This document shows positions 4,346 to 64,000 of a stretch of 64,000 nucleotides of DNA, piece after piece; positions within the stretch are counted from its first letter, which is position 1, and each line of letters starts with the position of its first letter. The stretch lies in NCBI GenBank assembly GCA_964567785.1, contig CAZMOK010000006.1, positions 7,331-71,330 of the forward strand. The letters run 5' to 3'. The notes beneath the pieces were generated by a model, which was not told the DNA's origin, searched no databases, and saw only the letters and a list, made by a program, of their open reading frames with translations. The position numbers and the translations under genes were made by a program. The stretch is from an uncultured Bacteroidales bacterium (GTDB lineage: Bacteria > Bacteroidota > Bacteroidia > Bacteroidales > JAGOPY01).

Positions 4346-5980
4346 TCCAAACACTTTTTCCCCGCCCAAGTAGGTGGCCATCACCTTAACAGAGGGCACA
4401 TCATCTACCGGGATCTGCATAATGTCGCGGTCAAGGATAACAAAGTCGGCAAATTTGCCCGGTTCAAGGCTTCCTTTGATATCCTCCTCGAAACTGCCCT
4501 TAGAGGCCCAGATGGTCATAGATCTCAGTGTTTGCTCCCTGGTAAGGGCATTTTCCATCTGAAAACCGCCATCAGGCCAGCCCTGCATATCTTTACGCGC
4601 AACAGAGGCATAAAAAGTATTCAGCGGGTCGATCTCCTCAACCGGGAAATCCGTACCGTTTACCACCCATCCGTTCTGTGCCAGCAGGTCCTTGAAGGCA
4701 TAAGCATGCTTGATCCTTTCGGGACCGAGCCTCTCATCTGCCCAGTACATGTCGGAAGTGGCATGTGTGCCCTGTATGGATGGGATTACTGAATAGTTCC
4801 CGAATAATTCCAGATCGGCGGGATTGACAACCTGGGCATGCTCTATCCGCCATCTCCTGTCATTCTCTCCCTTCAGCACCTCGCCGTATAGCTGCAGCGT
4901 GAGACGAGTGGCAGAATCGCCTATGCAGTGCGTATTGACCTGGAAACCGTTTTCATACGCCTGTGAAAACATATCCCTGAAATAGTCAGGTTCAGCAAGT
5001 AATAGGCCTTTGTTGTCAGGATCATCAGCATATGGCTCAAGCATTAAAGCACCTCTGGAACCCAGAGCACCATCGGTGTAAAATTTCAATGAGTTAACTC
5101 TTAGATAGTCTGTGTGGTAGGGGCCTTTTTCAAAAACAATGTCGAGGTTCTCCTTTTTCGGGGTCACCATTGCGTTGATCCGCATTTTGAGTGAACCCGA
5201 TTGCTGGAGCGAATCGATCAGATCGATTATTTCCAAATCCAGTCCTGCATCAACCACGGAGGTCAGGCCCACGCCAAAACATTTCTTCTGCGCTTCGATC
5301 AAGGCGTGGTTGACCTGTTTGTTCTTTGGTTCAGGTATCGCGGCCTTCATCGTGTCGATCGCATTGTCGAGGAGGATACCTGTCAGCTTTCCGTCCTTCT
5401 TGATGATGTCCCCGCCGGGGATTACCGTATTTTCATCAATTCCCGCCCTGCGGAGCGCTTCATTGTTCACAAGTATTGCGTGACCATCGATGCGGGTGAG
5501 GATGACAGGGTTATCGGGATACAGCTTATTGAGCATCTCATTGTCAGGGAACTCCTTCATATCCCAGTCGTTCTGGTCCCATCCCCTGCCGGTGATCCAG
5601 ACATATGGATGAGATTCATGAAAATTCTGCAACACCTGGATCACTTCATCAAAGGAAGATGTGCCGGTGAGGTCGGCCGACTGGATCAGCCCAAGGCCGA
5701 AACCATAGTAATGGCAGTGCCCGTCGATAAAACCGGGATAGACCGGTTTACCCCCTGCATCAACCACGTCATCAGCCGTATAGTTTTCGAGGATCTGATC
5801 GTTGCTGCCAACAGAAACGATTTTTCCATCTTTTACGGCAAGGGCTTCTGCTACGGAGAACTTATCATCAACGGTGTAGATCACGGCGTTGTGCACCAGG
5901 AGGTCGGCTTTTTTAACGTTCTGACAGGAAAAAGCTATAATCATGATAAGTATAATCTTAGTTGAGTACAAGTATTTCAT
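4340..5980 (-). CDS. Amidohydrolase 3 family (YtcJ-like) lipoprotein
   Basis: PGFIDGHCH, HCIGD, RIEHAQ, GTDFPVE and GSLEPGKFAD; signal peptide ends in lipobox-like AFSC. ATG at 5980 preferred over TTG at 5992. Confidence 0.88.
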   Translation of the reverse strand: MKYLYSTKIILIMIIAFSCQNVKKADLLVHNAVIYTVDDKFSVAEALAVKDGKIVSVGSNDQILENYTADDVVDAGGKPVYPGFIDGHCHYYGFGLGLIQSADLTGTSSFDEVIQVLQNFHESHPYVWITGRGWDQNDWDMKEFPDNEMLNKLYPDNPVILTRIDGHAILVNNEALRRAGIDENTVIPGGDIIKKDGKLTGILLDNAIDTMKAAIPEPKNKQVNHALIEAQKKCFGVGLTSVVDAGLDLEIIDLIDSLQQSGSLKMRINAMVTPKKENLDIVFEKGPYHTDYLRVNSLKFYTDGALGSRGALMLEPYADDPDNKGLLLAEPDYFRDMFSQAYENGFQVNTHCIGDSATRLTLQLYGEVLKGENDRRWRIEHAQVVNPADLELFGNYSVIPSIQGTHATSDMYWADERLGPERIKHAYAFKDLLAQNGWVVNGTDFPVEEIDPLNTFYASVARKDMQGWPDGGFQMENALTREQTLRSMTIWASKGSFEEDIKGSLEPGKFADFVILDRDIMQIPVDDVPSVKVMATYLGGEKVFGR

Positions 5981-6095
5981 TTCGTGGGTCAATTATTTAT
6001 AACAAAATTAAAAGTATCCTGTTAATTAATTACATTTATCCACCGAAGTTAATGGTAAAAGGTTTTTATCTTTGCGGAACATTAAAGAGGCAACA

Positions 6096-11111: not shown

Positions 11112-12746
11112 ATGATAAAAAAATACAGGGCCCTTGTTTTTATTACCACTTTTATTCTTCTTTCCACTCCTGTGATTGTATTTGGACAGACAAATGAATT
11201 GCACGCTATTTTTATAGAAAAAAACCGTTTCACTTCCAATACTTTCAAGGAATCGCCGGGATCCAGGGACTACACCAATATCAATATTTCCGGCGAGAGC
11301 TCACCGCAAAATGAGCCCTCAATTGCCATAAGCAGGATAAACCCTGATATTGTGGTAGCTGCATGGAGGGATTTCAGGCTTGGCTACATTGAACCTGATG
11401 TGGTTAGAAGGATCGGCTATTCCCGGTCGACCGACGGAGGGATTACCTGGTCAACATCACAATTATTGCCTGATCCTACACCGGACCACATTTCTCAGAG
11501 TGATCCGGTGGTCATTTGCGATATGGACGGCAATTTTTATATTTCAAGCACATCAAGGCAGCCCGTTACTTATTATAACAGGGAAATGCTTTTATACAAA
11601 TCAACAGATAATGGCCAGACATTCCAGCTTCATGCCACTGCCGTGCCGGGAAGCGGTATCCAGGGAGAGGATAAGGAGTGGATCTTTGTGGATCCAGTTG
11701 AAACCAATCCAACCTATAATCAACTGATGATTGCCTGGAGAAGCTTCGGGCCCAGCTACGGTATAAAGTTCAGGAAATCTGACATCGGAGGTTCCAACTG
11801 GTCTTCCACGGTGAATGTAAGTGATTTTGGCAGCGGCCAGGGAGCAAACGTGGCCACAGGTACAGATGGACAGATCATTGTAGTGTGGACCGATTACGGG
11901 ATCAATTACGATATTTCCTATGATAATGGTATCAGTTTTGGTTCCGACAGGTCCCTCTCTACTGCATATGGTAGTCCTAACAATTCATTTCCCTTTATCT
12001 GCGTGGATTATTCAGATGAAGCCACAAGGGGAAATGTATATGTTGTATGGGCCGATAACAGGCTCGGAAGCGATGATATCTGGTTCCAGCGCTCGGAAGA
12101 TGGAGGGGAAACCTGGCTCGACCAGCCTGTAAGGATCAATGCTTCCACTGCCTACCATCAGACCTGGCCGGTTATCAGGTGCGATTCTGATGGCACTTTG
12201 TATTCAATTTACTATGATGAAGGTGTAACTCCCGGATTGCTTACAACAAAACTGGCTTTCTCGGATGATGCAGGTGATACCTGGACCAACCAAATATTAA
12301 GTGATGTGGCTTTCCAGGGGAATGCACCTAATTCGAATGTAAGGTTTGGCGATTATATAGAACTGGATACTTATGATGGCAAAGTGATACCTGTCTGGAC
12401 CGACGACCGGGCCGGGGGGTATGACCAGGAGATCTACACTGCCATTGTCGACATAACATCCTTTACAGATGAAAACCCCGTTCAAGCGCCGGGCATCAGG
12501 GCAACAGCTTCTCCCAATCCTTTTTATTCAAGTTCAAGATTAGAACTTTCGATCGAAAAAGGCCAGATGATACAGATCTATCTGCACGGTCCTCATGCAA
12601 ACAGGATTGAAACAATTGAAAACAGGTACTTTGAAACCGGGGATCATATTATGACTTTTGGCAAAGGACTTGCGGCAGGCTTCTATTATCTCGTTATTGT
12701 TTCGGAAGAAGCACAGAAGTCGATAGTCAAGGTTGTGAAAATTTAA
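11112..12746 (+). CDS. Secreted BNR/Asp-box beta-propeller (sialidase-like fold) with T9SS type A C-terminal domain
   Basis: Signal peptide ending VFG|Q; Asp-boxes STDGGITW, STDNGQTF, SYDNGISF, SEDGGETW, SDDAGDTW; CTD SPNPF...GFYYLVI...VVKI. Confidence 0.8.
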   Translation: MIKKYRALVFITTFILLSTPVIVFGQTNELHAIFIEKNRFTSNTFKESPGSRDYTNINISGESSPQNEPSIAISRINPDIVVAAWRDFRLGYIEPDVVRRIGYSRSTDGGITWSTSQLLPDPTPDHISQSDPVVICDMDGNFYISSTSRQPVTYYNREMLLYKSTDNGQTFQLHATAVPGSGIQGEDKEWIFVDPVETNPTYNQLMIAWRSFGPSYGIKFRKSDIGGSNWSSTVNVSDFGSGQGANVATGTDGQIIVVWTDYGINYDISYDNGISFGSDRSLSTAYGSPNNSFPFICVDYSDEATRGNVYVVWADNRLGSDDIWFQRSEDGGETWLDQPVRINASTAYHQTWPVIRCDSDGTLYSIYYDEGVTPGLLTTKLAFSDDAGDTWTNQILSDVAFQGNAPNSNVRFGDYIELDTYDGKVIPVWTDDRAGGYDQEIYTAIVDITSFTDENPVQAPGIRATASPNPFYSSSRLELSIEKGQMIQIYLHGPHANRIETIENRYFETGDHIMTFGKGLAAGFYYLVIVSEEAQKSIVKVVKI

Positions 12747-47639: not shown

Positions 47640-50600
47640 ATGAAACTCAATACAATCATCAAATTCATTTTACTTCTGCTTATATCCCTTACGTTGATCC
47701 AGGCACAGGGCCAGTCGACCGGTGAGGAATACCGCCAGGCTATTGAACAGGCAGACGAGTATTTTGAGAAAGGTGATTTCATTAATGCCAAGGCATCCTA
47801 TCAGTATGCCAGTAAGCTTCAGCCTGATGAAGAATACCCCAAAGAAAAACTGGCAGAATCGATCGAGCTCATAAAAGTACAACTTGAAAAGAGCCAGCAA
47901 TATGCACAGAAGACAATCCTGGCCGATGACCTGTTCAACGAAGGCAGCTATGAGGCTGCCAGAAAAATGTATGAGCAGGCCCTGGAAATTCTTCCCAATG
48001 AAGAATATGCCCTCGAAAAAATAGATGAAATTGAACGTATACTGAAGGAGAGACGTGAAATTGAAGAGGGATATGCAAAAAGCGTTGCCGAAGGTGATGA
48101 GTTCTTCATAAACGAAGATTATGAAAAAGCGTTGGATGCTTACAAGATGGCCGCTACTTTCAAACCCGGTGAAAAATATCCGGCCGAAAAAATTGAGGAA
48201 ACCGAAACTATCCTCGATTCATTAAGGGCCAGCGAAGATGAGTATGAGAATGCACTATCACTGGCTGAAGAGTTTGTTGGCAGGGAAAAGTATGATGAAG
48301 CGCTGGTCCAGTTGAATAAAGCCATTAAGATCAAGCCCGGCGAGGCCTTTCCGGCAAAAAGGCTGGAGGAGGTTAAACTACTTAAAAAGGAATACGACTC
48401 TTACACGTCAATAATCGAGGAAGCAGACCAGCTTTATATCAGCAAGGAATTTCTGAAGGCAAAAGAAAAATACGAGGAGGTGCTGAAAACTCATCCCGAT
48501 GATGATTATGTACTGAACATGATCGACCGTACAGAACTGGCCATGGCCGAGATCGAAGACCTGAACAGGTCAAGCTATGAGCTGGCCATTGAAAAAGCGG
48601 ATGAATTATTCAGCGAAGAAGATTATGAAAACGCACTGAAGGAGTATAAAAAGGCCCTGTCGTTCAAGCCCGGCGCTGAATACGCATTGAAACGGATCGA
48701 TAAGGTGAATGAGTTGGCAAACCTCAGAAAAACCCAGGAGGAAGCTTATAAACAGACCATTGCAAAAGCCGACCAGCTTTATAAGGACGAAAAGTACACC
48801 GAATCCCGCGAGGAATATGTTAAAGCAAGGGAACTGAAGCCGCTTGAACAATATCCAGAGGTAAAAATAAGTGAGATTGACGATATACTGGAGCAGCTCA
48901 AAAGCCGTGAGGAAACTTATGAGGCCCTTATAGCCGGCGCCGACAAGCTCTTTTATGCCGACGACTATGAAGAAGCAAGGGAGCAATACCGGAAGGCTTC
49001 AGAAATGTTTCCCGCTAAGCAGTACCCGCTCGACCAGATCACCATGATCAACGAGATCATCGGATTGAGGGATACCTACATTAAAGAGCTTACGCGTGCC
49101 GACAGGTTGCTTGCTGAAGAGAAATATGAAGAGGCCATCCTTGCTTACCGCCAGGCAGCAGAAATAGACCCTGAAGAGAACTATCCTGATGAAAAGATAA
49201 ATGAGATCGAGTCTCTGCTGGCTGAAAGGGCCAAAGAACTTGACAACAAGTACAAGGAGCTTATTGCAAAAGCCGACTCAGAGTTTGAGAGCCGTGACTA
49301 CGAGGCAGCATCTGCAACATACAGGGCCGCGTCAGAGATCAAACCTGATGAACCCTACCCTAAAGAGAAGATCGAACTCATTGATAAAAACCTTTTTGAG
49401 ATAGCAAGGCAGCAGGAAGCAGATCAGCAATACGAAGACGCAATGGCAACCGGCGGGATGCGGATTCGGGAGAAAAAGTACCAGGAAGCATTGGCTGCAT
49501 ACAAGCTGGCAGCAGAGCTCAAGCCTGACGAACAGGAGCCGAAAGATAAAATTGAGGAAACAAATGAACTGATTGCCGAAAAAAACAGGCAGGAAGCTGT
49601 TGACCTGAAGTATAACCCCCTGGTAGCAGAGGCTGACCAGCTTTTCAGTGATAAAAAGTACAAAGAAGCCCTTGTTAAATACAAACAGGCAAGGGAGCTT
49701 AAGCCAGAAGAGGAATATCCGAGAGAAAGGATAACTGTTACCGAAGGGATCATAGCAGAACTCGAGCTCATGGCTGAACTTGAAACTGAGTACAATGACT
49801 TTATACTTTCAGCCGATTCGGCCTTTGAGGCAAATGACCTTGAACTGGCAAGGACCCTCTACAGCCAGGCTGCTGCGTTGATGCCCGAAAAAGCCTATCC
49901 CGGCCAGAAGATTGACGAAATAGAGCGAAAATTAGCCGACGCCGAAGAACTTGAAGAAAGTTACAATACAGCCCTGGCCCTGGGCGAACAATACCTTGAT
50001 AGCCAGGAATACGGGGAAGCTCTTGAACAATACAGGATCGCCTCTGAGCTCAAGCCTGATGCTGAGTTACCGGCCACTAAGTTGGATGAGATCAATTCCA
50101 TTCTTGACGAAATAGCCAGGAATGAACAGATAAAGAATGAGTATGAAGACATAATTGCGGAAGCCGATAAAGCCTACAATGAAAATAGATATGAGGAGGC
50201 TATTGAGCTCTACCGGGAAGCGGCTAAAGTGATCCCCGACAAGATCTACCCCCAGGAAATGATAAGAGAGATCGAGATCATCAGGGATGAAATTGCTGTT
50301 GAAGAGGAGCGTCAAAGGCGATACGACAAGCTGATAAAATCGGCTGACAGCCTACTTACCATCGAAAACTATGGCCTTGCCCTCACATCATACAAAGAAG
50401 CGCTTGACCTGAAACCCGATGAAGCCTACGCTGCCCGGAAGGTTACCGAACTGGAAGAAACTATTGCTGAAATAGCGAGGGAGAATGAACTGAATACAAG
50501 GTACGAAGAGACTATAGCGGCAGCCGACGAAGCTTTCGATGCTACAGAGTATGATAAGGCCATGGAAAAGTACCGGTCAGCTTCTGAGATCAAGCCTGGT

Positions 50601-52226
50601 GAAACTTACCCCGGTGAAAAGATCAGTGAGATCAATCGCATACTTGAAGATATTGCAAAGGCAGAGGCCAAACAGCAGCAGTATGACCAGGCCATAGCCC
50701 GCGCTGATGAGCTGGCCGGATCATCAAAATACGAAGAAGCACTGGCTGAATATAAAGCTGCACAGGCCCTTAAGCCTGATGAAGATTATCCTGCCGGCAA
50801 GATCAGGGAAATGAATACCATATTAGAGGATATTGCCAGGAAAGAAGAAATACAACGCAAGTACGACATGGCCGTATCGAATGGCGACAGTCTGCTGGGT
50901 GCCGGCCAGTTCAGAGCAGCAATAACTTCTTTCAATGTTGCAACGGAATTGAAACCTGATGAACAATATCCAAAAGAAAAGATCCTGGAGTCGCAGCGCA
51001 AACTCGACGAAATTGCTGCTGCAAAAGCCCTTGAGGAAGAATATAATGAAGCTGTAGCCCTTGCCGACAGCTACGTTGATCAGGCACTTTACGAAAGCGC
51101 AATCAATAATTACAAAAAAGCCCTCGAGCTGAAACCTGAAGAACAGTACCCGAAAAATAAAATCACAGAGCTGGAAACCCTTCTGGCGGCCAATACCGAA
51201 TATGAAGAAGCAATTTCCTTTGCTGACGATCATTTTAAGCGCAGGGACTGGGAGAACGCCACCCTTGAATACAAAAGGGCCAATTCAATTAAGCCCGGTG
51301 AGAGCTATCCACTCGACAGGATTGCAGAAATAGAGTCGTTAATAGCAGAGGAAAAAAGGCTGAAAAAGATCGAAGAAGATTACAGGAAGGTTATTAAAGA
51401 AGCCGACAAACTTTACGCATCAGAGGAATTTCAGCCTGCATTGGAAGCCTACCGGCAGGCACTTGAAATCAAACCGGAAGAAACTTATCCTGTGACCAGG
51501 ATCGAGGTGATCAAGGAAAAGCTTGAAATACTCGAAGAGCAAAAAGAGAAGGCCTATGAGCTTGCCATCGCCAAAGCCGATAATTTCTTCGAGCAGGAAA
51601 ACTATGAAATGGCCAAGCTTAACTATGAGACGGCTTCCGATCTAAAGCCCCGGGAAACATATCCGGTCGATAGGCTTAAAGAAGTGAACGAGATGATAAT
51701 GCTGAGGAGGCAGGTGCTGCAGGAAGAATATGACAAGGCAATTGCCGATGCCGACAAATTCTATGCGTCGAAGATATACGACAACGCCATTGAATCTTAC
51801 AGGGAAGCTGCCATGATCAAATCCGACGAAGCATACCCTGTGGAGATGATCCGGAATATTATGAAGTTGCTCAGCGAAAGGGCTATTGTGGATGTAAACC
51901 GCGAACCCCTGCTCATTGAGAACAATACCACGGAGAAGTTCACATTTCCACCGGTGCCGGTTCAAAACAGGAAATCGAACTACATCTTTTTCAAGGCTAC
52001 GAACAAATCTGAAAATGATTACAAGGTCATCCTGAGCTTTGGTGAAGGAAGTGCCAAGAACGGAGGAGTTGTTGTAAAAGTACCACCGGGCAGTGAAGAA
52101 AATGAATTCCTCGTAAGGATCAGCGCACAGTATAAATGGTTCAGCGAAGACAACAATTGGATCACGCTATATCCAGAAGGAGGCGATCTGGAACTCGGAC
52201 TGATGCAGATCTCCAATTCGGATTAA
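47640..52226 (+). CDS. Large exported TPR-like repeat protein (24 repeats) with C-terminal beta-sandwich-like domain
   Basis: Signal peptide; recurring Y..AI..AD..F....Y..A...Y..A..LKP.E.YP..KI unit; final ~110 aa are beta-rich. Confidence 0.85.
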   Translation: MKLNTIIKFILLLLISLTLIQAQGQSTGEEYRQAIEQADEYFEKGDFINAKASYQYASKLQPDEEYPKEKLAESIELIKVQLEKSQQYAQKTILADDLFNEGSYEAARKMYEQALEILPNEEYALEKIDEIERILKERREIEEGYAKSVAEGDEFFINEDYEKALDAYKMAATFKPGEKYPAEKIEETETILDSLRASEDEYENALSLAEEFVGREKYDEALVQLNKAIKIKPGEAFPAKRLEEVKLLKKEYDSYTSIIEEADQLYISKEFLKAKEKYEEVLKTHPDDDYVLNMIDRTELAMAEIEDLNRSSYELAIEKADELFSEEDYENALKEYKKALSFKPGAEYALKRIDKVNELANLRKTQEEAYKQTIAKADQLYKDEKYTESREEYVKARELKPLEQYPEVKISEIDDILEQLKSREETYEALIAGADKLFYADDYEEAREQYRKASEMFPAKQYPLDQITMINEIIGLRDTYIKELTRADRLLAEEKYEEAILAYRQAAEIDPEENYPDEKINEIESLLAERAKELDNKYKELIAKADSEFESRDYEAASATYRAASEIKPDEPYPKEKIELIDKNLFEIARQQEADQQYEDAMATGGMRIREKKYQEALAAYKLAAELKPDEQEPKDKIEETNELIAEKNRQEAVDLKYNPLVAEADQLFSDKKYKEALVKYKQARELKPEEEYPRERITVTEGIIAELELMAELETEYNDFILSADSAFEANDLELARTLYSQAAALMPEKAYPGQKIDEIERKLADAEELEESYNTALALGEQYLDSQEYGEALEQYRIASELKPDAELPATKLDEINSILDEIARNEQIKNEYEDIIAEADKAYNENRYEEAIELYREAAKVIPDKIYPQEMIREIEIIRDEIAVEEERQRRYDKLIKSADSLLTIENYGLALTSYKEALDLKPDEAYAARKVTELEETIAEIARENELNTRYEETIAAADEAFDATEYDKAMEKYRSASEIKPGETYPGEKISEINRILEDIAKAEAKQQQYDQAIARADELAGSSKYEEALAEYKAAQALKPDEDYPAGKIREMNTILEDIARKEEIQRKYDMAVSNGDSLLGAGQFRAAITSFNVATELKPDEQYPKEKILESQRKLDEIAAAKALEEEYNEAVALADSYVDQALYESAINNYKKALELKPEEQYPKNKITELETLLAANTEYEEAISFADDHFKRRDWENATLEYKRANSIKPGESYPLDRIAEIESLIAEEKRLKKIEEDYRKVIKEADKLYASEEFQPALEAYRQALEIKPEETYPVTRIEVIKEKLEILEEQKEKAYELAIAKADNFFEQENYEMAKLNYETASDLKPRETYPVDRLKEVNEMIMLRRQVLQEEYDKAIADADKFYASKIYDNAIESYREAAMIKSDEAYPVEMIRNIMKLLSERAIVDVNREPLLIENNTTEKFTFPPVPVQNRKSNYIFFKATNKSENDYKVILSFGEGSAKNGGVVVKVPPGSEENEFLVRISAQYKWFSEDNNWITLYPEGGDLELGLMQISNSD

Positions 52227-53831: not shown

Positions 53832-55175
53832 TCAGGCCCTGTTAAGCTCTAGCAGTGTGATCTCCGGAAGAATGCCTACCCTGCCGGGATATCCTATCAT
53901 GCCAAGCCCCCTGTTCACATAAAGATATTGTTGCCTCCCGCGGTTTGTAAGATCGTATAGCCCTGCCCAGTATTTGTACATATACTGTGCGAGGCTCCAT
54001 TTGAATCCTTTGAATTCAACACCAAACTGGAAACCATGGGTATGACCGGAAAGTGTGAGATCGACCTCCGGATGTTTTTCAGTGACTATTTTTTCCCAGT
54101 GAGTAGGATCGTGCGACAAAAGTATCCTCACAGGTAAATCTTCTGTGCCGGCAAGGGCCTTATCAAGATCGCCATACTGAGGGAATCTCTTGTTCTTGCT
54201 CCAGTTCTCAACGCCCAGTATGGCTATCTTATCGTCTCCCCTCTTTATAACGTTACTTTCGTTATTTAGCAGTTTCCAGCCAAGCCCTTCATAAAAATCG
54301 TAAAGCATCTGCAGGTTCTTTTTCTTTGCCTCGTCGTCGGGCCAGTTCACATAATCGCCGTAATCATGGTTACCCAGCACGGCATAGATCCCCTGGCTGG
54401 CTTTTATTTTTTTGAGTGAATCCCTGAACCTGATCGCTTCGGAAGTGGTGGAGTTGACCAGGTCGCCTGTAAACATCACCAGGTCAGGGTTCAGAGAGTT
54501 AATTAGTTCTGCAGCTTCATCCAGGGGATCGGAACTTATCCAGCTACCAAGGTGAAGATCGGAGATCTGTACTACCCTCAGTCCATCGAAGGATGCGGGC
54601 AGTGACGGTAACCTGATAAACTCCCGCCTTATCCTGAAATCATATGCCCATTTAATAACACCTACCAGCATACCACTAAGTAAAAGACCTCCCCCGGCAA
54701 GGCCCATAGTTTTGAGAAATCTGGCACGGTTCATAGTGGTTGCTTCCTGGTTAAAGGGTTTCTTCTGCCTTTTTGCCTTCGCAAAGCGAAAAGAAAAATC
54801 AACGATCCGGATAAGGTCCACAATCAGGAAAAACAGTACCGCCAGCAACTTGGAAATATAAATAACAAAAGATATCCCGAATGCATAAATCGCAAAGGCG
54901 CCAGTCCATGTATAATAAGGCTTTACGATCAGGGCAAGGCCCATGCCTACCATCATGACAAACGGTAACCAGTAAAGAAAAGTAATACCGTATTTCCAGG
55001 AGGCCTTTATCTTTTTCAGGTCTTTCCTGATGGAATACCACAGATAAAAATCTATTGCAAAAAGGAAGACCAGGAGAGGGATCCTGTCAGCCATTTTGGG
55101 AAATGTACTGCTCAGTAAAATATAGGTTAAGACCAAAAATACTGCGCCTGCAAGTATATATAGGAACCTCTTCAT
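53832..55175 (-). CDS. Membrane-bound calcineurin-like metallophosphoesterase (YkuE-like)
   Basis: N-terminal TM helices; SDLH, TGDLVN, LGNHDYG, LSHDP, GHTHG. Confidence 0.9.
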   Translation of the reverse strand: MKRFLYILAGAVFLVLTYILLSSTFPKMADRIPLLVFLFAIDFYLWYSIRKDLKKIKASWKYGITFLYWLPFVMMVGMGLALIVKPYYTWTGAFAIYAFGISFVIYISKLLAVLFFLIVDLIRIVDFSFRFAKAKRQKKPFNQEATTMNRARFLKTMGLAGGGLLLSGMLVGVIKWAYDFRIRREFIRLPSLPASFDGLRVVQISDLHLGSWISSDPLDEAAELINSLNPDLVMFTGDLVNSTTSEAIRFRDSLKKIKASQGIYAVLGNHDYGDYVNWPDDEAKKKNLQMLYDFYEGLGWKLLNNESNVIKRGDDKIAILGVENWSKNKRFPQYGDLDKALAGTEDLPVRILLSHDPTHWEKIVTEKHPEVDLTLSGHTHGFQFGVEFKGFKWSLAQYMYKYWAGLYDLTNRGRQQYLYVNRGLGMIGYPGRVGILPEITLLELNRA

Positions 55176-55306
55176 TCAATCAGCCCGGTGCGAAATTAGA
55201 AAATACTTGATTCTAACAAGTTAAGGTAGTATTATGTTTAATTTAAGTTATAACTAACGGAAAATGTCACCTATTATTTTATTTAGAAAGCTTTCAACTA
55301 TTAATT

Positions 55307-55749
55307 CATCTAACAGGAGAAAAGTTTGGTGCCTGCTTTTCCAGCATTCCACCTACTAACAACAATAACTGGCTGATTACCCCGCTTTTTAGACCTGGGA
55401 AACAATTCAGAACTCTTTTTCCGGGTTAAATCATATACCGACAGCTATAGCCTGGAAAGGTATAAAATTGGTTTTTCAACTACCGGTACCAACCCCGAAG
55501 ATTTTATTATTGTATCTGGTTCAACACCCATGCTTACGCCTGCTGATGCCTGGGAAGAACTTGAAAACACGCTCTGAAAAAATGATCCGGACACTTATCC
55601 TTACCGACTCAAAAGGCAGGCTGGTCTTCAGGAAGGATATTTCGATCAAGGAATACATACTGAGCACTGAAAGCATGGCTCCCGGACTATACCTGTTAAG
55701 ATTTGAAGGGGAATCCTGTTCCGGTTCAAGAAAGATTTTGGTAAGATAA
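55307..55749 (+). pseudogene. Remnant of a cleaved-adhesin (choice-of-anchor J-like) T9SS cargo gene
   Basis: HLTGEKFGACFSSIPPTNNNNWLITPL in one frame. After a +1 shift in the T5 run at 55386-55390 it continues LDLGNNSELFFRVKSYTDSYSLERYKIGFSTTGTNPEDF... to TGA 55575-55577. A CTD-like segment (ILTDSKGRLV...PGLYLL...KILVR*) follows in the third frame. Confidence 0.62.
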
Positions 55750-55852
55750 CAGCACGAAATAAGTATTGTTAAAGCGTAAACGCCCTGAAAGGGCTTTTAC
55801 GCCTTTTTTCATTATTCCCCTCAAACATTTTCTTATATTTCTGAAAAAAATA

Positions 55853-57818: not shown

Positions 57819-59262
57819 AAAAATACCGGTCAATATAATGGTTACACTGCTCCTGCTTATCTATTTGACAGTGATTACCTATGGATTGGTTAATGATAAA
57901 CAGAACCTTGTCATTGCTGCATCATCGCTCGCCTTATTGCCAATGGCCATATTCTTTTTTGTTTTCAGGTTGAAATTACTGGGCCTGGCAACCGCTTTTA
58001 TCATACCCCTTTCGGTAAAGATACCGGTTGGAGGGGGTTCAATCCTGTCTTTCCCTGCAGAGGCATTAGTACTGGCAATAGCTGTACTATTCCTGGTCTA
58101 TGCAGTGGTAAGGGAAAAGGAAGTGGATACGACAACACTCAGGCATCCCCTTTCGGTACTCATTCTGCTCGATCTCGGCTGGTCGGTTTACACCGGAATG
58201 CTGGCTGAAATACCGCTAATTTCCTTCAAAAGAATACTGATCAAGTTGATCTTTATCATCGTTTTCTATTTCCTCTTCCTGGAAGCTTTCAGTAACAGGA
58301 AAAACATGAAGTCGGTATGGATCCTATACGCTTTAGGTTTGATAATCCCCATTTCCTGGACAATCTATAACCATTCACATTATGATTTCAGCAAGGTGGT
58401 CGCATTTTTAATGCCCCTGCCCTTCTATAACGATCACACGCTTTATGCAACATGCATTGCTTTTATACTTCCTGTTATTATACTTTTCGGCCTCCGGCCC
58501 GGATGGTTCGGCATGACTGAAAAATGGAGATTTGTTTTCATTCCACTCACTATACTGTTGATCACTGGCGAATTTTTTTCATTCTCAAGGGCTGCCTGGC
58601 TCAGCATTCTTGCGGGGGCGCTGTCAGGGGCGCTTATTGTTTATCTGAAGTTCAGGGCAATCCACCTTTTGTTGCTCGTTCTGGCAGGCGCAGCCGTGCT
58701 GGCTTATTACAGCAGGGATATTTATCTGTACGCTGAGAAAGTTGACTCAGTAAGCCGGCATGAGGATGTGGGCGAGCATATGAGATCGGTCATCAACATT
58801 CAGACCGACGCCTCCAACCTTGAAAGGATCAACAGGTGGCAATGTGCACTCAGGATGTTTAATGACAGGCCGTTAACCGGTTTTGGTCCGGGAAATTATA
58901 TGTTCGTTTACGGAAGGTACCAGGTGACCACCGAGATGACCCGGATCAGCACAAACCACGGTGAAAAGGGCAATGCTCATTCCGAATACCTGATGTACCT
59001 GTCGGAAACGGGGCTCCCGGGGCTGATCATCTTTCTTCTGCTTATCTACATCGCAACAGCAAAAGCCATAAGGATATTCCACCGGAGTGAGGATAAAGCG
59101 ATTAAATGGTTAGTGCTCACGGTACTCATTGGTTTCATTTCCTATATTTTCCACGGGAATTTCAATTCCTTCATTGATACCGACAAGGCGTCAGTGCTGT
59201 TTTACGGAGCATTGGCGACAATCGCGGCTATAGATATCTATCACACCAGGGATGTCATCTAG
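57802..59262 (+). CDS. O-antigen ligase/polymerase (Wzy_C) family membrane protein
   Basis: About 12 TM helices; SFSRAAWL, SNLERINRW, GFGPGNY, AHSEYL...ETGLPG. Confidence 0.85.
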   Translation: MNRLAEKIPVNIMVTLLLLIYLTVITYGLVNDKQNLVIAASSLALLPMAIFFFVFRLKLLGLATAFIIPLSVKIPVGGGSILSFPAEALVLAIAVLFLVYAVVREKEVDTTTLRHPLSVLILLDLGWSVYTGMLAEIPLISFKRILIKLIFIIVFYFLFLEAFSNRKNMKSVWILYALGLIIPISWTIYNHSHYDFSKVVAFLMPLPFYNDHTLYATCIAFILPVIILFGLRPGWFGMTEKWRFVFIPLTILLITGEFFSFSRAAWLSILAGALSGALIVYLKFRAIHLLLLVLAGAAVLAYYSRDIYLYAEKVDSVSRHEDVGEHMRSVINIQTDASNLERINRWQCALRMFNDRPLTGFGPGNYMFVYGRYQVTTEMTRISTNHGEKGNAHSEYLMYLSETGLPGLIIFLLLIYIATAKAIRIFHRSEDKAIKWLVLTVLIGFISYIFHGNFNSFIDTDKASVLFYGALATIAAIDIYHTRDVI

Positions 59263-59304
59263 ATGTCTTCCGGATGTCATCTAGATGTCTTCCGGATGTC
59301 ATCT
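59251..59304. repeat. 22-bp tandem repeat (about 2.5 copies) containing both convergent stop codons
   Basis: GATGTCATCTAGATGTCTTCCG x2 + GATGTCATCT. Confidence 0.92.
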
Positions 59305-60090
59305 CTCAATCCGGATCCAGGGAAAAGGACTCAGAGGATATCCCAATCGCCTTAACAACCTGCTCTTCAAACTGTAAGGATTGTAAAGAATTGTTGAATG
59401 ATAAGAGGAAAGAAAATCAAAAGAATGATGGTGGTAATGGTTCATCATACTTGTGCTGTCTATCTCACTGAAATATGCATCACTCCTTTCAGAAGCTGCA
59501 TCCCTTTCAGCCTCATTTTTATAAATAGGACTGTCGAGGATATGGATCTCCCCCTTTTTATTCAGCAGATCAAGCAACCGGTCAATAAGTTCGCATGGGT
59601 TTGAAAAATATTGAAGGGTACTGTTCAGTACGATAAGGTCGAAATAGCCGGGCTCGAAGATTTCCTCAAAAACATCCCCATACAAAAAGGCTGTCCCGGT
59701 GGCCGAAAATAACCTGGCAGCCTGTTCAACCTCTGTCCTGTTTATTTCGAGGCCGAAAAACAGAGTGGAAGAAAGAAAAGGCCTTATCCTGCTGATGAAC
59801 CATCCATTTCCACAACCCAGGTCAAGCATTGATGAAACTCCTTTCCTTTTAAGCAGGTACCCGGAAAAACGATCCAGGGTATCAGCCCTGTACAACCACT
59901 CCTTATTTAACGGGTGACTGTCAAAAAGATATGGAAGCTTCCTGACCAGGTCGTCCCCGAATACACGGCCCTCCTTTTGCCTTACTTCGAGGTATTTTTC
60001 TTCAAAATCCTTAAAGCGGCCAGTCTCTCCCAGGTAAACTACCCCATTTCTTTCAGACCGGATATTTCTCAGCGCATCTTTTATCATCAT
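59299..60090 (-). CDS. Class I SAM-dependent methyltransferase
   Basis: Motif I MLDLGCGNG; FDLIVLNSTLQY; GEIHILDSP. Confidence 0.85.
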   Translation of the reverse strand: MMIKDALRNIRSERNGVVYLGETGRFKDFEEKYLEVRQKEGRVFGDDLVRKLPYLFDSHPLNKEWLYRADTLDRFSGYLLKRKGVSSMLDLGCGNGWFISRIRPFLSSTLFFGLEINRTEVEQAARLFSATGTAFLYGDVFEEIFEPGYFDLIVLNSTLQYFSNPCELIDRLLDLLNKKGEIHILDSPIYKNEAERDAASERSDAYFSEIDSTSMMNHYHHHSFDFLSSYHSTILYNPYSLKSRLLRRLGYPLSPFPWIRIER

Positions 60091-61475
60091 TTGCTAACGG
60101 CCATAAGTACCCTTGAAATATTGCAGATCAATGAGTGTTTGACACCTCGGGTCATGTTTCTGTTTGCCAGTGCTTTACCGGCCTTCGCAGAATGATGCAG
60201 GTATCTTATGGCATGTGTATAGTAAGTTCGCCTGTAGGTGCGCCTGAAATCTATTTCCCGGTCGGTATAACAACCCCATTCACCCGGGACCTTCAACCCG
60301 GCTTTCTCTGCTTCTGCATAAAGTGCGGTGCCTGGAATGGGATAGGCCATTGTGATGGTCAGCAGGTCGGGAAGTGAATCACGCAGGTGTTTTGCAGTTT
60401 CAACAATATCCTTTTCTGTTTCACCAGGGTATCCAAGCATCAGGAAGGTCCCAGATTCTATTCCCGCTCTCTTCGTGGCTTTGATCATATCCCTGACCCT
60501 GGCAGCTTCCACCCGCCTGTCCATGAGGTCAAGGACTTTCTGGGAACCACTCTCGGCCCCGATCCAGAGCGTGTTGCACCCACTTTCTTTCAGGAGGGCA
60601 ATTACCTCGTCATCCATCCTGTCGGCTCGTGAAACACATTCATAGCTGATCTCCAGGCCCCTGGACTTTATTTCATCCGTAAAGCCCTTCAACCATTCCT
60701 TGCTGATGGTGAATACATCGTCTACAATCCAATACCTGTCGGGATTATATCTTTTCTGAAGTTTTTCAAGTTCACCGACGACCATTTCGGGTGACCTCCG
60801 GCGGAAAGTCCTGCCAAAAACCGCTTTACTGCACCAGCGGCAGGAATACGGGCAACCCCTCATGGTACTTATTGTCATTGAGGTGAAGCCATGATTTTCT
60901 TTCCAGGTTGAAAAATACGGTTCAATGTCTATCAATCCGAAATCCGGGAAGGGCAGCTCATCAATATTTTCAATCAGTCCAGGCTCTCCGGTATAAACTG
61001 TTTCATTGTTCTCATCCCGATAGGAAATACCGGGTATAGAAGCAGGAGGGCCCTTTTTATCTCCCTCAAGATGCATGATCAGCCTGTAAAATGTATGCTC
61101 CCCCTCCCCCGTTATGCAATAATCAGCGCCCCGGTCAAGGTATTTTCCGGTATGATAGCTCACATCCGGCCCGCCCAGGATCACAACAATATCATCCAGT
61201 TCTTCGGAGTTTTTAATGAATTCCAGCATTTTAACGATGTTGACCCGGGTCATCAGGTTCACATACAGCCCAAGGTAACGGGGTTTATTTTTCAGTAAAA
61301 AGTCACATAATTCATCGTAACTGCTGAAAGTTGAATCGAATATCTCACAATCAATATTTTTAGTCTTCAGGTATGTTGTAATATGGAGCAACCCCTGGGG
61401 TGGATAGGGCATCATGACGGATTCTTCCACCTTATCCTCTTTGAGAAAATAACCATGGCCCAGCAATACATTCAT
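60087..61475 (-). CDS. B12-binding domain radical SAM protein
   Basis: N-terminal cobalamin-binding domain (YPPQGL, LGGPDV, GEGE); RGCPYSCRWC; VDDVF; GAESGSQKVL. Confidence 0.92.
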   Translation of the reverse strand: MNVLLGHGYFLKEDKVEESVMMPYPPQGLLHITTYLKTKNIDCEIFDSTFSSYDELCDFLLKNKPRYLGLYVNLMTRVNIVKMLEFIKNSEELDDIVVILGGPDVSYHTGKYLDRGADYCITGEGEHTFYRLIMHLEGDKKGPPASIPGISYRDENNETVYTGEPGLIENIDELPFPDFGLIDIEPYFSTWKENHGFTSMTISTMRGCPYSCRWCSKAVFGRTFRRRSPEMVVGELEKLQKRYNPDRYWIVDDVFTISKEWLKGFTDEIKSRGLEISYECVSRADRMDDEVIALLKESGCNTLWIGAESGSQKVLDLMDRRVEAARVRDMIKATKRAGIESGTFLMLGYPGETEKDIVETAKHLRDSLPDLLTITMAYPIPGTALYAEAEKAGLKVPGEWGCYTDREIDFRRTYRRTYYTHAIRYLHHSAKAGKALANRNMTRGVKHSLICNISRVLMAVSK

Positions 61476-62272
61476 TTTTGTACCTCCAGTTCAACCAGGA
61501 AATGATCCGATATACCGGCCAATTTGCCAATCCCACCTGATAATCTTTCGAGATAGTTCAGCAGGCCCAGCAAGCGGGACTTATTCCTGAAATAATTATT
61601 GAGGTACGAAGGAGGGATAAAAACACCAACCGGCCTGATTTTTCTCACATGATATCTTTCCCCTGCTAAAGCCTTAATTCCGGCCGGGGAATAGAACCAG
61701 GTGTTTACGGCAAATCCGCCCAGGTTGACATCCAGCGGACCGACGCCTTTTCTCCTGGCTGAAGCCTCTTTGTTTCCTTTCATCGTGAAATAGAACCACT
61801 CCCAAAGACAAAATTGCGACATTAATACCATTACAAATCTTCCCCCGGGATTCAGCATTTCAAAAGCCTGGTCCATAATAGTCCCAAGCGTACCGGGACT
61901 TACGCAGTTCAACCCTCCAAAATTACTGAAAACCATATCAAAACTCCGGTCTTCGGGATAAGCATTAAGATCCTCCAGGTCAAGTATGGTAAAGGAAACG
62001 TTTGCCTTATTGTCTGATCTCTTTGCTTTGCCTGCAGCGATCTCTATCATCTTCTCCGAAGCATCGGTGGCCATAACATTATGTCCCATCGAGGCCATCC
62101 AGAGGGCATCCTCCCCGGTACCACAGCCAAGCTCGAGGATTTCAAGGGTCTGCTTGTGCCTGAAATATTTTTCCAGGAAGCTCCAAACCCTGTGCCTCTG
62201 ATGCCTGCCAATGGGGGAATTGACAAATTCATGGTCATAATTGATCGCTACCCGGTCAAAAGAGCTTTCCAT
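61472..62272 (-). CDS. Class I SAM-dependent methyltransferase
   Basis: ILELGCGTGED; FDMVFSNFGGLNC; LNPGG. Confidence 0.87.
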   Translation of the reverse strand: MESSFDRVAINYDHEFVNSPIGRHQRHRVWSFLEKYFRHKQTLEILELGCGTGEDALWMASMGHNVMATDASEKMIEIAAGKAKRSDNKANVSFTILDLEDLNAYPEDRSFDMVFSNFGGLNCVSPGTLGTIMDQAFEMLNPGGRFVMVLMSQFCLWEWFYFTMKGNKEASARRKGVGPLDVNLGGFAVNTWFYSPAGIKALAGERYHVRKIRPVGVFIPPSYLNNYFRNKSRLLGLLNYLERLSGGIGKLAGISDHFLVELEVQK

Positions 62273-62276
62273 AGTA

Positions 62277-63740
62277 TCAGATGCCGCCTGTTTGTTTCAG
62301 TTTTAACCTGTCGGCCCAGATGGCCGGGTAATAATATGCAACTGCTATCAGGTACCTGAACAGTTCTCTATTCCACATCGAGGGTTTTACCAGTGCGCGC
62401 CTGAGGAGCCGCAGGCGTTGCCTTCTCCTGTATAGTTTATGAGTGTACCTGTGAAGTCTTTTATAGTATTCGGGGGGGAATGTACCGGTGTACATCAGCG
62501 CAAGCTCATCCGAATCTTTCCAGTTGGCTTTTTCCTTTAGTTCTTCTTTTACTTGTTCATGAAAAGGTGTGCCGGGCAGGGGGTATGATATTGAAATGCC
62601 CAGGTCATCCGGCATGGAACCCAGTACCATTTTTATGGTTTCCCTGATGTCCTCGAGCTCTTCACCCAGGTAACCGAACTGGATGAAAAAAGCCGCCTTG
62701 ATACCATGATCTTTCAGTAATTCCCTTGCCCTGACAATCTGTTCCACGGTCTGATCCTTGTTCATTGCATCGAGCACCTTTTGTGAACCTGATTCCGCAC
62801 CTAGCCATACGGTATCCGCCCCGGTAGCTGCCAGGTCTTCAGCCATCCTGTCCTTTAAAATAAGGTCGGCCCGCGATTGCACAGTGTATGTAAAAGAGAG
62901 GCCGCTTTCCCCGACAAGCTTCCTGAACTTGTCCATCCATCCTTTTTTAAGCCCGAAAATATCATCGCAGATCCAGAAATGGCTCACTCCATATGTATTG
63001 ATCAGAAGTTTCATCTCTTCTACCACATTTTCAGGCGATCTTGAATTGTATTCATATCCATAGATGGGCTTTGCGCACCATGAACAATTGTAGGGACATC
63101 CTCTTGTAGTGGCCAGGTTGATAGAATAATAGCCATGGTTTTTCAACCAGATATATTTATAAAGATCCAGATCAGCCAGGTCCCACGAAGGAAAGGGAAG
63201 GCTGTCGAGATCACGGATAACAGGCCTCAGTTCGTTCTTGATAACCTTGTCACCGGCTTTATAAGCTATTCCCTGTATTTCACCGGGATCAATATTATTT
63301 TTGCGCAGAGCGATGAACAGTTCCCGGAGTGTTTCCTCCCCTTCTCCGAGAATAATGTAATCGGCGCCTTTTCCAAGGTATTCCCGGTAATGATCCGTTG
63401 AGTCGGAACTGGAAACAATAACAGTGCAGCCCTTCTCCTTCCCCATCCTGATCATTTCAAAGGCAGCCTCCCTCATGTTTGTGAGGCACATTTTAGTGAG
63501 GTAGTTGAAACCATCATCATAGATCACGAGGAGACCGGGTTGATGCATTTCAAGCAAGGGGGCCAGTTCTTCAGGGCTTTCCGTGAGGTTGGTATCGTGA
63601 AAAACAACATCACTCCCCTCCCCTCTCAAAACCGATGCTGCGTAAAGAGTTCCAAGGGGCGGGTAATACCGCTTCGACTTCCATTGCTTTTGATCGAAGC
63701 GATAAAAGTAAGAGTGTGTCAGCAATACCTTATTCCCCAT
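62277..63740 (-). CDS. B12-binding domain radical SAM protein
   Basis: YPPLGTLYAA, GEGE; RGCPYNCSWC; CDDIF; GAESGSQKVL. ATG 63740 preferred over TTG 63746. Confidence 0.92.
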   Translation of the reverse strand: MGNKVLLTHSYFYRFDQKQWKSKRYYPPLGTLYAASVLRGEGSDVVFHDTNLTESPEELAPLLEMHQPGLLVIYDDGFNYLTKMCLTNMREAAFEMIRMGKEKGCTVIVSSSDSTDHYREYLGKGADYIILGEGEETLRELFIALRKNNIDPGEIQGIAYKAGDKVIKNELRPVIRDLDSLPFPSWDLADLDLYKYIWLKNHGYYSINLATTRGCPYNCSWCAKPIYGYEYNSRSPENVVEEMKLLINTYGVSHFWICDDIFGLKKGWMDKFRKLVGESGLSFTYTVQSRADLILKDRMAEDLAATGADTVWLGAESGSQKVLDAMNKDQTVEQIVRARELLKDHGIKAAFFIQFGYLGEELEDIRETIKMVLGSMPDDLGISISYPLPGTPFHEQVKEELKEKANWKDSDELALMYTGTFPPEYYKRLHRYTHKLYRRRQRLRLLRRALVKPSMWNRELFRYLIAVAYYYPAIWADRLKLKQTGGI

Positions 63741-63999
63741 AATCAATTTTTACGTTCTTTTTCTTTTCAAATTCAGAGGCCCTTTGCCTGAAAGCGCTCA
63801 GAACCCTGTTCTGAAAGTCGCCGGGATGATACTTGGCTTCGTTCCTGCTCAGGCGAAAACTTTTTTCCAGCAGGTTCCTTTCATGGTTACGGTATTTTTT
63901 CTTCCAGTACCAAACATGGAATTTCATGGCAAGAATATCCATCCAGTTACCCGCCAGGGTTGTTAATATCCCTTCCAAAAGATTTTTTAGCCTGCCATT
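63730..63999 (-). CDS. C-terminal part of an uncharacterised protein (5'-truncated by the window edge)
   Basis: Frame is open from the window end (NGRLKNLLEGIL...SRNEAKYHPGDFQNRVL...); its stop overlaps the radical SAM start, suggesting the same operon. Confidence 0.7.
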   Translation of the reverse strand, partial: NGRLKNLLEGILTTLAGNWMDILAMKFHVWYWKKKYRNHERNLLEKSFRLSRNEAKYHPGDFQNRVLSAFRQRASEFEKKKNVKIDYGE

Positions 64000-64000
64000 T

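Follow-up and report, generated by a model that had tools for sequence, protein, structure and literature searches.

A predicted polymerase-beta-type nucleotidyltransferase and B12-type radical SAM gene cassette recurrently linked to surface-glycan assembly in Bacteroidota and Ignavibacteria

What do B12-type radical S-adenosylmethionine (SAM) enzymes act on when their genes stand beside genes of polysaccharide assembly? The question is raised by a locus at the end of a 64,000-nt stretch of DNA from an uncultured Bacteroidales bacterium (JAGOPY01; assembly GCA_964567785.1, contig CAZMOK010000006.1, positions 7,331-71,330, forward strand), and this whole stretch is called the window here. Five minus-strand genes of the locus encode, in their order of transcription, a nucleotidyltransferase (NT), a radical SAM enzyme (rSAM1), a methyltransferase (MT1), a second radical SAM enzyme (rSAM2) and a second methyltransferase (MT2), and they converge on a pair of genes of the Wzz and Wzy_C type. 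Characterised B12-dependent radical SAM enzymes work in antibiotic, cofactor, lipid and protein modification; to our knowledge they do not include one from the assembly of surface polysaccharides in bacteria. We find that the first gene encodes a predicted polymerase-beta-type nucleotidyltransferase of an uncharacterised family, that NT, rSAM1 and MT1 form the conserved core of a cassette, and that the link of this cassette with glycan assembly is recurrent and not a matter of chance. It is an abundant cassette, conserved in Bacteroidota as well as Ignavibacteria, and both gene order and gene fusions tie it to glycan assembly.

The distribution of the cassette was surveyed in about 100 related loci (numbered from L001) taken from genomes and metagenomes, in which the open reading frames (ORFs) were classified by BLAST against the seed proteins. 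Forty of them with at least 8 kb of flank are called long loci, and the composition of the cassette was scored in 34 loci having at least 5.5 kb downstream of NT. A recognised glycan-assembly gene was present in 24 of the 40 long loci, and a Wzy_C or GT-C enzyme (GT87, PMT_2-like or GT22-like) in 23; both counts are lower bounds because many neighbours are unclassified. Genes of the GT4, GT9, Wzx-like and Bac_transf types were also recurrent near the cassette. Wzy_C itself adjoins the cassette in at least five different arrangements: convergent and together with Wzz (window, L005, L006, L014), co-directional upstream with Wzz (L094, L100), as last gene of a Wzx-GT2 operon running into NT (L013, L069), divergent (L031, L034, L044, L065, L095-L097) and co-directional downstream (L020). 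The Wzz-like gene travels with Wzy_C and the cassette in L005, L006, L014, L094 and L100.

The first-pass annotation of this DNA had described the operon as converging on a Wzz/O-antigen ligase pair. The Wzy_C half of that pair is firm in the window (Pfam 81.3 bits vs a cut-off of 31.7, with 12 hydrophobic segments), while the Wzz-like protein stays under threshold there (16 bits vs 25.5), unlike its orthologues, which pass with 33.9 bits in L005 (60% identical) and 39.7 bits in L094. The window protein has N- and C-terminal hydrophobic segments around a coiled-coil region, as expected for Wzz. The same annotation had allowed that the adjacency might be accidental, and its recurrence across loci in so many arrangements speaks against this.

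Gene fusions point in the same direction. In P0344 an initiating phosphoglycosyl transferase (PGT, Bac_transf) is fused to NT within a locus of the order GT4-GT4-Wzy_C-[PGT-NT]-epimerase, and in P0270 a GT4 glycosyltransferase is fused to NT with rSAM1 as the next gene. In P0317 a homologue of MT2 (34% identity, E 2e-31) is fused N-terminally to NT, and its locus has, in this order, Wzz, Wzy_C, MT2-NT, rSAM1, MT1 and rSAM2, all co-directional, which are the same seven components as in the window.

NT is the anchor gene of the cassette and was previously undescribed. Searches of it against Pfam, NCBIfam and PDB sequences gave no match at normal thresholds, and against PDB sequences nothing appeared even at E <= 10 by single-sequence or profile search. 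Its assignment comes from the residues S111-G112-S113...D124-x-D126 and E181, which are invariant in an alignment of 35 NT homologues with D165 almost invariant, and which agree with the polymerase-beta superfamily motif hG[GS]-x(9-13)-D-x-[DE] plus a third acidic residue. With Pfam NTP_transf_2, NT scores 15.7 bits vs a cut-off of 21, and two of its homologues pass, P0388 at 22.0 and P0313 at 22.3 bits; PF01909 or PF18765 is assigned to some database homologues. The AF2 model (pLDDT 89.7) shows a winged helix at the N-terminus, an NTase core and a C-terminal domain of helices. Since the motif is intact and invariant in the 35 homologues and the model of the NTase fold is confident, NT is probably active. 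The best Foldseek matches have a probability of 0.9-0.97 and E of 0.03-0.1 over about 100-126 residues, and they comprise MNT antitoxins, HalB and aminoglycoside nucleotidyltransferases. The family has its own invariant motifs (FCxNYF, FTATE and SKHHP..FQ), and in a library clustered at 50% identity it counts 4682 clusters at E <= 0.001 and 400 at E <= 1e-30.

Among known enzymes, ANT(4')/KNTase, AadA, ANT(9) and the minimal MNT nucleotidyltransferases appear to have the same polymerase-beta NTase core as the NT model, in which the catalytic GS...DxD motif is present. The ANT enzymes also have a helical C-terminal domain like that of NT, and they nucleotidylate sugar hydroxyls, which is the reaction proposed here for NT. 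The likeness has its limits: the structural matches are weak (E 0.026-0.4, TM 0.2-0.3 for the whole protein), no match exists among PDB sequences, and NT differs by its additional N-terminal winged-helix domain and its own invariant motifs.

Next to NT stands rSAM1, its obligate partner: an orthologue lies directly downstream of NT in 62 of the 68 loci having downstream sequence. MT1 was present in 32 of the 40 long loci, rSAM2 in 20 and MT2 in 13. In the 34 scored loci the composition was NT-rSAM1-MT1-rSAM2 in 10, all five genes in 6, NT-rSAM1-MT1-MT2 in 6, NT-rSAM1-MT1 in 5, NT-rSAM1 in 4 and NT alone in 3. Of the four NT-rSAM1 loci, L013 is wrongly scored, for its rSAM1 is split by an IS110 insertion, and MT1 and rSAM2 come downstream. 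The first-pass annotation had regarded the operon as a repeated module of radical SAM enzyme plus methyltransferase. This idea was rejected: MT1 and MT2 are unrelated, and the two optional genes vary independently, with rSAM2 without MT2 in 10 loci, MT2 without rSAM2 in 6 and both in 6. Because rSAM2 and MT2 are gained and lost independently, the unit of the cassette is the core NT-rSAM1-MT1 and not a duplicated module. A separate scan of the genome collection with rSAM2 gave only L005 and L006 as true relatives; L007-L011 were distant radical SAM arrays without NT and were set aside.

Several observations on the composition of single loci may be recorded here. The IS110-family transposase gene of L013 lies at 11229-12236 on a 4.8-Mb contig and leaves an 80-aa fragment and a 393-aa remainder of rSAM1, so this cassette is probably inactivated. 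In L027, L036, L055, L084, L091, L095 and L097 there is a third pair, either just upstream of NT or farther downstream, in which a B12-type radical SAM enzyme of about 503-512 aa goes with a HemK/PrmA-like methyltransferase of about 228 aa; radical SAM enzymes number three to four in these clusters. Beside the third pair, L091 and L097 have a SPASM-domain radical SAM gene, and a SPASM gene is also found in L031 and L035. In two unrelated loci, L089 (13322-15079) and L101 (14472-16235), a NodU/CmcH-type carbamoyltransferase follows NT-rSAM1 in the place of MT1, which suggests that the tailoring chemistry that follows the NT-rSAM1 step is exchanged between loci.

Both radical SAM proteins pass the Pfam Radical_SAM cut-off of 29.5 bits (84.6 bits for rSAM1 and 86.8 bits for rSAM2), and the B12-binding domain scores 32.1 bits in rSAM1, exactly at the Pfam cut-off, and 42.1 bits in rSAM2. 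The CxxxCxxC motif reads CPYNCSWC in rSAM1 and CPYSCRWC in rSAM2, and the two proteins are 37% identical over 410 residues (E 9e-82). From their sequences they are predicted to be paralogous class B (B12-domain) radical SAM enzymes, and the domains, the CxxxCxxC motif, the common motifs and the paralogy given by the first-pass annotation were all confirmed. Homologues of rSAM1 keep 57-75% identity across Bacteroidota and Ignavibacteria, and its homologue search returned at least 8000 scored candidates at E <= 1e-20.

The annotation had also placed both enzymes outside the characterised families, and this holds, as no curated NCBIfam cut-off was reached by rSAM1 or rSAM2 and most scores are 10-35% of the family cut-off. 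The best match of rSAM1 is BchE (TIGR02026; 171.3 bits for rSAM1 and 144.1 for rSAM2 vs an equivalog cut-off of 481.35), and the best matches of rSAM2 are ApyD (149 bits), PhpK (144) and BchE (144). The remaining scores, given for rSAM1 and then rSAM2, are 112.2 and 143.9 vs 600 for PhpK (TIGR04479), 88 and 149 vs 750 for ApyD (NF050148), 107 and 127 vs 578 for HpnJ (TIGR03471), 72 and 103 vs 650 for HpnR (TIGR04367), 114.6 and 97.5 vs 360 for MgmA (TIGR04014), 68.6 and 64.3 vs 400 for TIGR04295, 81.7 and 87.3 vs 575 for the Sden_1168 P-methyltransferase (NF038361) and 61 and 75 vs 500 for AprD4 (NF033070). Both proteins are under the cut-off of the ladderane-type lipid radical SAM family TIGR04072 as well. 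The closest approach to any cut-off is that of rSAM2 to TIGR03975, a C-methyltransferase of peptides that are made by the ribosome and modified after translation (RiPPs), with 103.6 vs 281.85 bits. The name BchE, which JGI gives to many homologues, was rejected as over-annotation, the scores of rSAM1 and rSAM2 being far under the 481.35-bit cut-off.

By structure, the nearest solved relative of rSAM1 is MgmA (9ccb; 82 bits by sequence, Foldseek E 5.7e-21), followed by TsrM, OxsB, AprD4, CysS and TokK, all of class B, and the rSAM1 model superposes on MgmA, TsrM, OxsB, CysS and TokK over 410-590 alignment columns. The nearest PDB sequences of rSAM2 are AprD4 (64.5 bits) and then MgmA. MgmA, the glutamine C-methyltransferase of methyl-coenzyme M reductase, resembles rSAM1 in its B12 domain and radical SAM core (24% identity by Foldseek); it differs in that its substrate is a protein glutamine in methanogens, and neither an NT partner nor a setting among glycan genes is described for it. 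AprD4 of the apramycin pathway (PDB 6fd2) is a class B-type enzyme working on aminoglycoside sugars, so the fold can act on sugar carbons, although it belongs to an actinomycete antibiotic pathway and is a dehydratase, not a methylase. As AprD4, a close relative, shows, possession of the B12 domain does not fix the chemistry. TIGR04295 (B12_rSAM_oligo) presumably occurs in a conserved cassette of the oligosaccharide or glycan type; neither radical SAM protein is a member of it by score, and TIGR04295 is itself uncharacterised.

The two methyltransferases are both of class I and otherwise unrelated. MT1 has 71.3 bits to Pfam Methyltransf_25; its best NCBIfam match is CpaM (67 bits vs a cut-off of 180), and its closest PDB matches are generic, headed by phosphoethanolamine N-methyltransferases at 38 bits. 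MT2 has 47.1 bits to Methyltransf_31, and its nearest solved relatives are homologues of the plantazolicin N-methyltransferase (35 bits). As the annotation had noted, the two have diverged; the SAM-binding glycine motif is their sole likeness. Its expectation of two radical and two polar methylation steps is drawn from superfamily membership only, and class B radical SAM enzymes include non-methylases as well. In the close Bacteroidales relative L006 (cassette proteins 90-94% identical), MT2 lacks about 485 nt (L006 11270-11307, corresponding to window 60074-59589), so that MT2 is decayed or dispensable there; the quality of this assembly is uncertain, with a run of N within rSAM2.

Taken with the gene neighbourhood, these assignments suggest a cytoplasmic cassette that tailors an envelope glycan or glycolipid handled by Wzy_C, a reading for and against which we see the balance as even; its specific chemistry is graded lower. 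The operon proteins are held to be cytoplasmic because none of the five has a hydrophobic segment. Under this proposal the glycan would be assembled on a polyprenyl-phosphate carrier, and NT would transfer a nucleotide from an NTP to a sugar, as a precursor or already in the lipid-linked unit, yielding an activated intermediate or a recognition handle. Then rSAM1 would radically modify an unactivated carbon, most likely by methylcobalamin-dependent C-methylation, and MT1 would methylate a heteroatom, with rSAM2 and MT2 adding a second radical and a second polar step in the window organism. The modified unit would be flipped or exported and thereafter polymerised or ligated by Wzy_C under the control of Wzz. 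A narrower form, in which NT and rSAM1 are a two-enzyme system on a carrier-linked sugar (nucleotidylation, then C-methylation or another radical change) and represent a widespread unrecognised class that in Bacteroidota, Ignavibacteria and relatives acts on polysaccharides of the surface or on O-glycans of proteins, is unlikely to be right in full and is offered as a speculation.

The best mechanistic precedent for the NT-rSAM1 pair is the Fom1/Fom3 system of fosfomycin, where a nucleotidyltransferase, the cytidylyltransferase domain of Fom1, supplies the substrate of a B12 radical SAM methylase. Fom3 methylates the nucleotidylated substrate cytidylyl-2-hydroxyethylphosphonate, and cytidylylation is required (PMC8158854). 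The present cassette differs from it in context, which is Wzy-type glycan assembly and not an antibiotic cluster, and no phosphoenolpyruvate mutase or other phosphonate gene is found in the window or the loci examined; the P-methylase families such as PhpK are likewise set apart by score, neither radical SAM protein attaining their cut-off. We also take the transferase domain of Fom1 to be of a different fold from the polymerase-beta-type NT.

Several points weigh against the proposed glycan-tailoring role. For every enzyme the reaction type is a prediction from sequence, as are the substrate and the nucleotide used, and solved structures match the NT fold weakly (E >= 0.026). The window has no initiating transferase, flippase or glycosyltransferase beside the cassette, so the glycan would need to be built elsewhere in the genome. 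In 16 of the 40 long loci no recognised glycan gene was seen in the flank sequence examined, and some loci have an MFS/ABC exporter, a SPASM radical SAM enzyme or a carbamoyltransferase instead, which fits a small-molecule product too. NT occurs without rSAM1 in a few loci (L061, L077, L086, L099). Lastly, not every class B radical SAM enzyme is a methylase: AprD4, OxsB and TsrM are among the closest structures, and BchE and HpnJ among the closest sequence families.

This last point leads to the alternative that the cassette is glycan-linked but that one or both of its radical SAM enzymes are not methylases and carry out dehydration/deoxygenation, epimerisation, ring contraction or C-C bond formation on a sugar, all methyl transfer being left to the class I methyltransferases. 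We consider it somewhat unlikely, a judgement made independently of those on the other alternatives. It draws on the best solved relative of rSAM2, AprD4, a 1,2-diol dehydratase of aminoglycoside sugars, on OxsB and AprD4 among the top structural neighbours of rSAM1, on BchE and HpnJ, neither of them a methylase by its NCBIfam name, and on the fact that each radical SAM enzyme usually has a separate methyltransferase alongside. Against this, rSAM1 is matched best by the C-methylase MgmA in sequence as well as in structure, the presence of rSAM2 is independent of that of MT2, and the characterised class B enzymes are mostly methylases.

A second alternative moves the target from the sugar to a lipid, which could be the polyprenyl carrier, some other membrane lipid, or lipopolysaccharide in its lipid or core portion, with Wzy_C acting as a WaaL-type ligase and the radical SAM enzymes methylating or cross-linking hydrocarbon carbons as in hopanoid and ether-lipid tailoring. 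HpnP, HpnR, HpnJ and the GDGT ring synthases are indeed class B enzymes that modify unactivated carbons of envelope lipids, and both radical SAM proteins have sub-threshold matches to the lipid-related HpnJ, HpnR and TIGR04072. Genes of GT9, the heptosyltransferase family, recur in the extended clusters of L012, L013, L067, L097 and L098, and ArnT-like PMT_2 and GT87 enzymes, which use polyprenyl-phosphate sugars, are frequent. These lipid-family scores are no better than those of peptide, phosphonate and tetrapyrrole families, however, all being far under their cut-offs; lipid-synthesis genes do not recur beside the cassette in the loci examined, and no hopanoid or ether-lipid genes lie near it. 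The NT fusions to a phosphoglycosyl transferase and to GT4 point to the sugar part, and the Wzz partner to control of polymer length and not to lipid A chemistry. A lipid target is, on this evidence, quite improbable.

That the product is a ribosomal peptide or a diffusible small molecule, with the glycan genes merely sharing an envelope or export neighbourhood, is very improbable: ApyD and TIGR03975 among the best NCBIfam matches, the plantazolicin-type relatives of MT2 and the SPASM enzyme, MFS/ABC exporter or carbamoyltransferase of some loci speak for it, but the peptide-family matches are all far under cut-off, no RiPP recognition element, protease, cyclodehydratase, polyketide synthase (PKS) or nonribosomal peptide synthetase (NRPS) was found in the window or the loci examined, and this reading explains poorly why NT is fused in three ways and Wzy_C placed in many. 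The RiPP idea was also followed by seeking conserved short ORFs around all 88 NT loci; none was seen, the sole larger cluster of short ORFs being truncated N-termini of rSAM1, and a peptide precursor is therefore unsupported. This agrees with the first-pass annotation, which had seen neither a peptide precursor nor PKS/NRPS genes. The annotation had named two outcomes that would speak against its proposal, a characterised family embracing both radical SAM enzymes and the lack of a recurring link to glycan or lipid genes; no characterised family fits and the glycan-gene link recurs, so neither outcome was found.

The glycan-tailoring proposal may bear on known questions of Bacteroidota glycosylation. 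The O-glycans of Bacteroidota are commonly methylated, and their transferase and ligase are undiscovered according to a 2025 review (PMC12871550). A connection of the cassette with this methylation is possible, and in the speculative narrower form above the adjacent Wzy_C could be one of the missing ligase or oligosaccharyltransferase activities. If the proposal is true, sugar carbons would be open to radical modification, a new glycan chemistry that bears on antigenicity, phage receptors and the breakdown of glycans. A new nucleotidyltransferase family would gain a function, and there would be a tractable entry to the identity of the transferase and ligase and to the methyl modifications treated in that review. 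In the literature searched, which for a 2026 review of B12 radical SAM enzymes means the passages matching our terms, the cassette was not described and no class B enzyme was placed in surface-polysaccharide assembly. What is new here is the nucleotidyltransferase family together with an uncharacterised radical step, and the superfamilies that build the glycan-tailoring locus are known.

The places of the genes in the window are given in Table 1; all five minus-strand ORFs are present in the order and at the places of the first-pass annotation. The five genes form a translationally coupled operon. Read from the sequence, the NT stop and the rSAM1 ATG overlap by 11 nt, a 4-nt gap (TGA TACT ATG) separates rSAM1 from MT1, and the MT1/rSAM2 and rSAM2/MT2 junctions are an ATGA overlap each, all as annotated before. 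An alternative TTG start of rSAM1 lies at 63746. In the scan for promoters and terminators, sites were no more frequent than in shuffled sequence. A C-terminal membrane anchor on rSAM1 was sought, and no hydrophobic segment was seen.

Table 1. Coordinates of the cassette genes and the adjoining glycan-assembly genes in the window.
Feature	Length	Position	Strand	Remark
NT, C-terminal part	89 codons	63730..64000	-	N-terminal two thirds lie past the window end
rSAM1 (rS1), predicted class B radical SAM enzyme with N-terminal B12-binding domain	487 aa	62277..63740	-	ATG start
MT1, class I SAM-dependent methyltransferase of UbiE/Methyltransf_25 type	266 aa	61472..62272	-	Pfam
rSAM2 (rS2), predicted class B radical SAM enzyme, rSAM1 paralogue	462 aa	60087..61475	-	Pfam; optional member
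MT2, class I SAM-dependent methyltransferase, unrelated to MT1	263 aa	59299..60090	-	Pfam; optional member
Wzy_C-family polytopic membrane protein (O-antigen polymerase/ligase superfamily)	486 aa	57802..59262	+	convergent with the operon
Wzz-like polysaccharide co-polymerase	436 aa	56508..57818	+	17-nt overlap with the Wzy_C gene

The upstream boundary, which lies outside the window, was obtained from public contigs. The exact rSAM1 protein with the ATG start is encoded on four near-identical public contigs, and look-ups with the TTG-start form or with rSAM2 gave no match. One of these contigs, L001, is 99.8% identical in DNA to window 59272-64000 and contains the full first ORF, an NT of 312 aa at 5113-6051. 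The annotation had expected the operon to continue beyond the window; L001 has only the remainder of the first ORF there, and upstream of it a divergent DnaJ-like gene and its MerR_2 partner. As this divergent gene lies upstream, the operon consists of five genes with no further extension. A 45-codon ORF upstream in L001 has no family match and is not conserved across the loci. About 4 kb upstream of the operon (L001 1-1633) are genes for a GT2 glycosyltransferase and a membrane protein of the LPG_synthase_TM family, separated from the cassette by TspO-like, MerR_2 and DnaJ-like genes. This GT2 may be of the polyprenyl-phosphate type, judged by a hydrophobic C-terminal segment, and its Pfam match is to Glycos_transf_2 only; these two genes might be connected with the glycan pathway.

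A few features of the window outside the cassette were observed as well. The 22-nt unit GGATGTCATCTAGATGTCTTCC is present at 59250-59305 as two tandem copies and a partial third, and this repeat fills the 36-nt gap between the convergent Wzy_C and MT2 stop codons and includes both stops. It has no other copy in the window; contig L001 terminates within the repeat, and L006 has a similar stretch. At 55175-55766 the window has a 93-codon ORF alone where relatives hold a gene for a Rieske-domain/thiamine-pyrophosphate enzyme of about 650 aa, which sits between the deaminase and the next gene (L005 11738-13687, L006 15133-17091). Farther away, at 47640-52226, a 1528-aa secreted-looking protein is made nearly entirely of repeats of about 60 residues with the pattern ...Y..A...Y..A...KP.E.YP..KI.EI..., resembling a very long TPR-like array.

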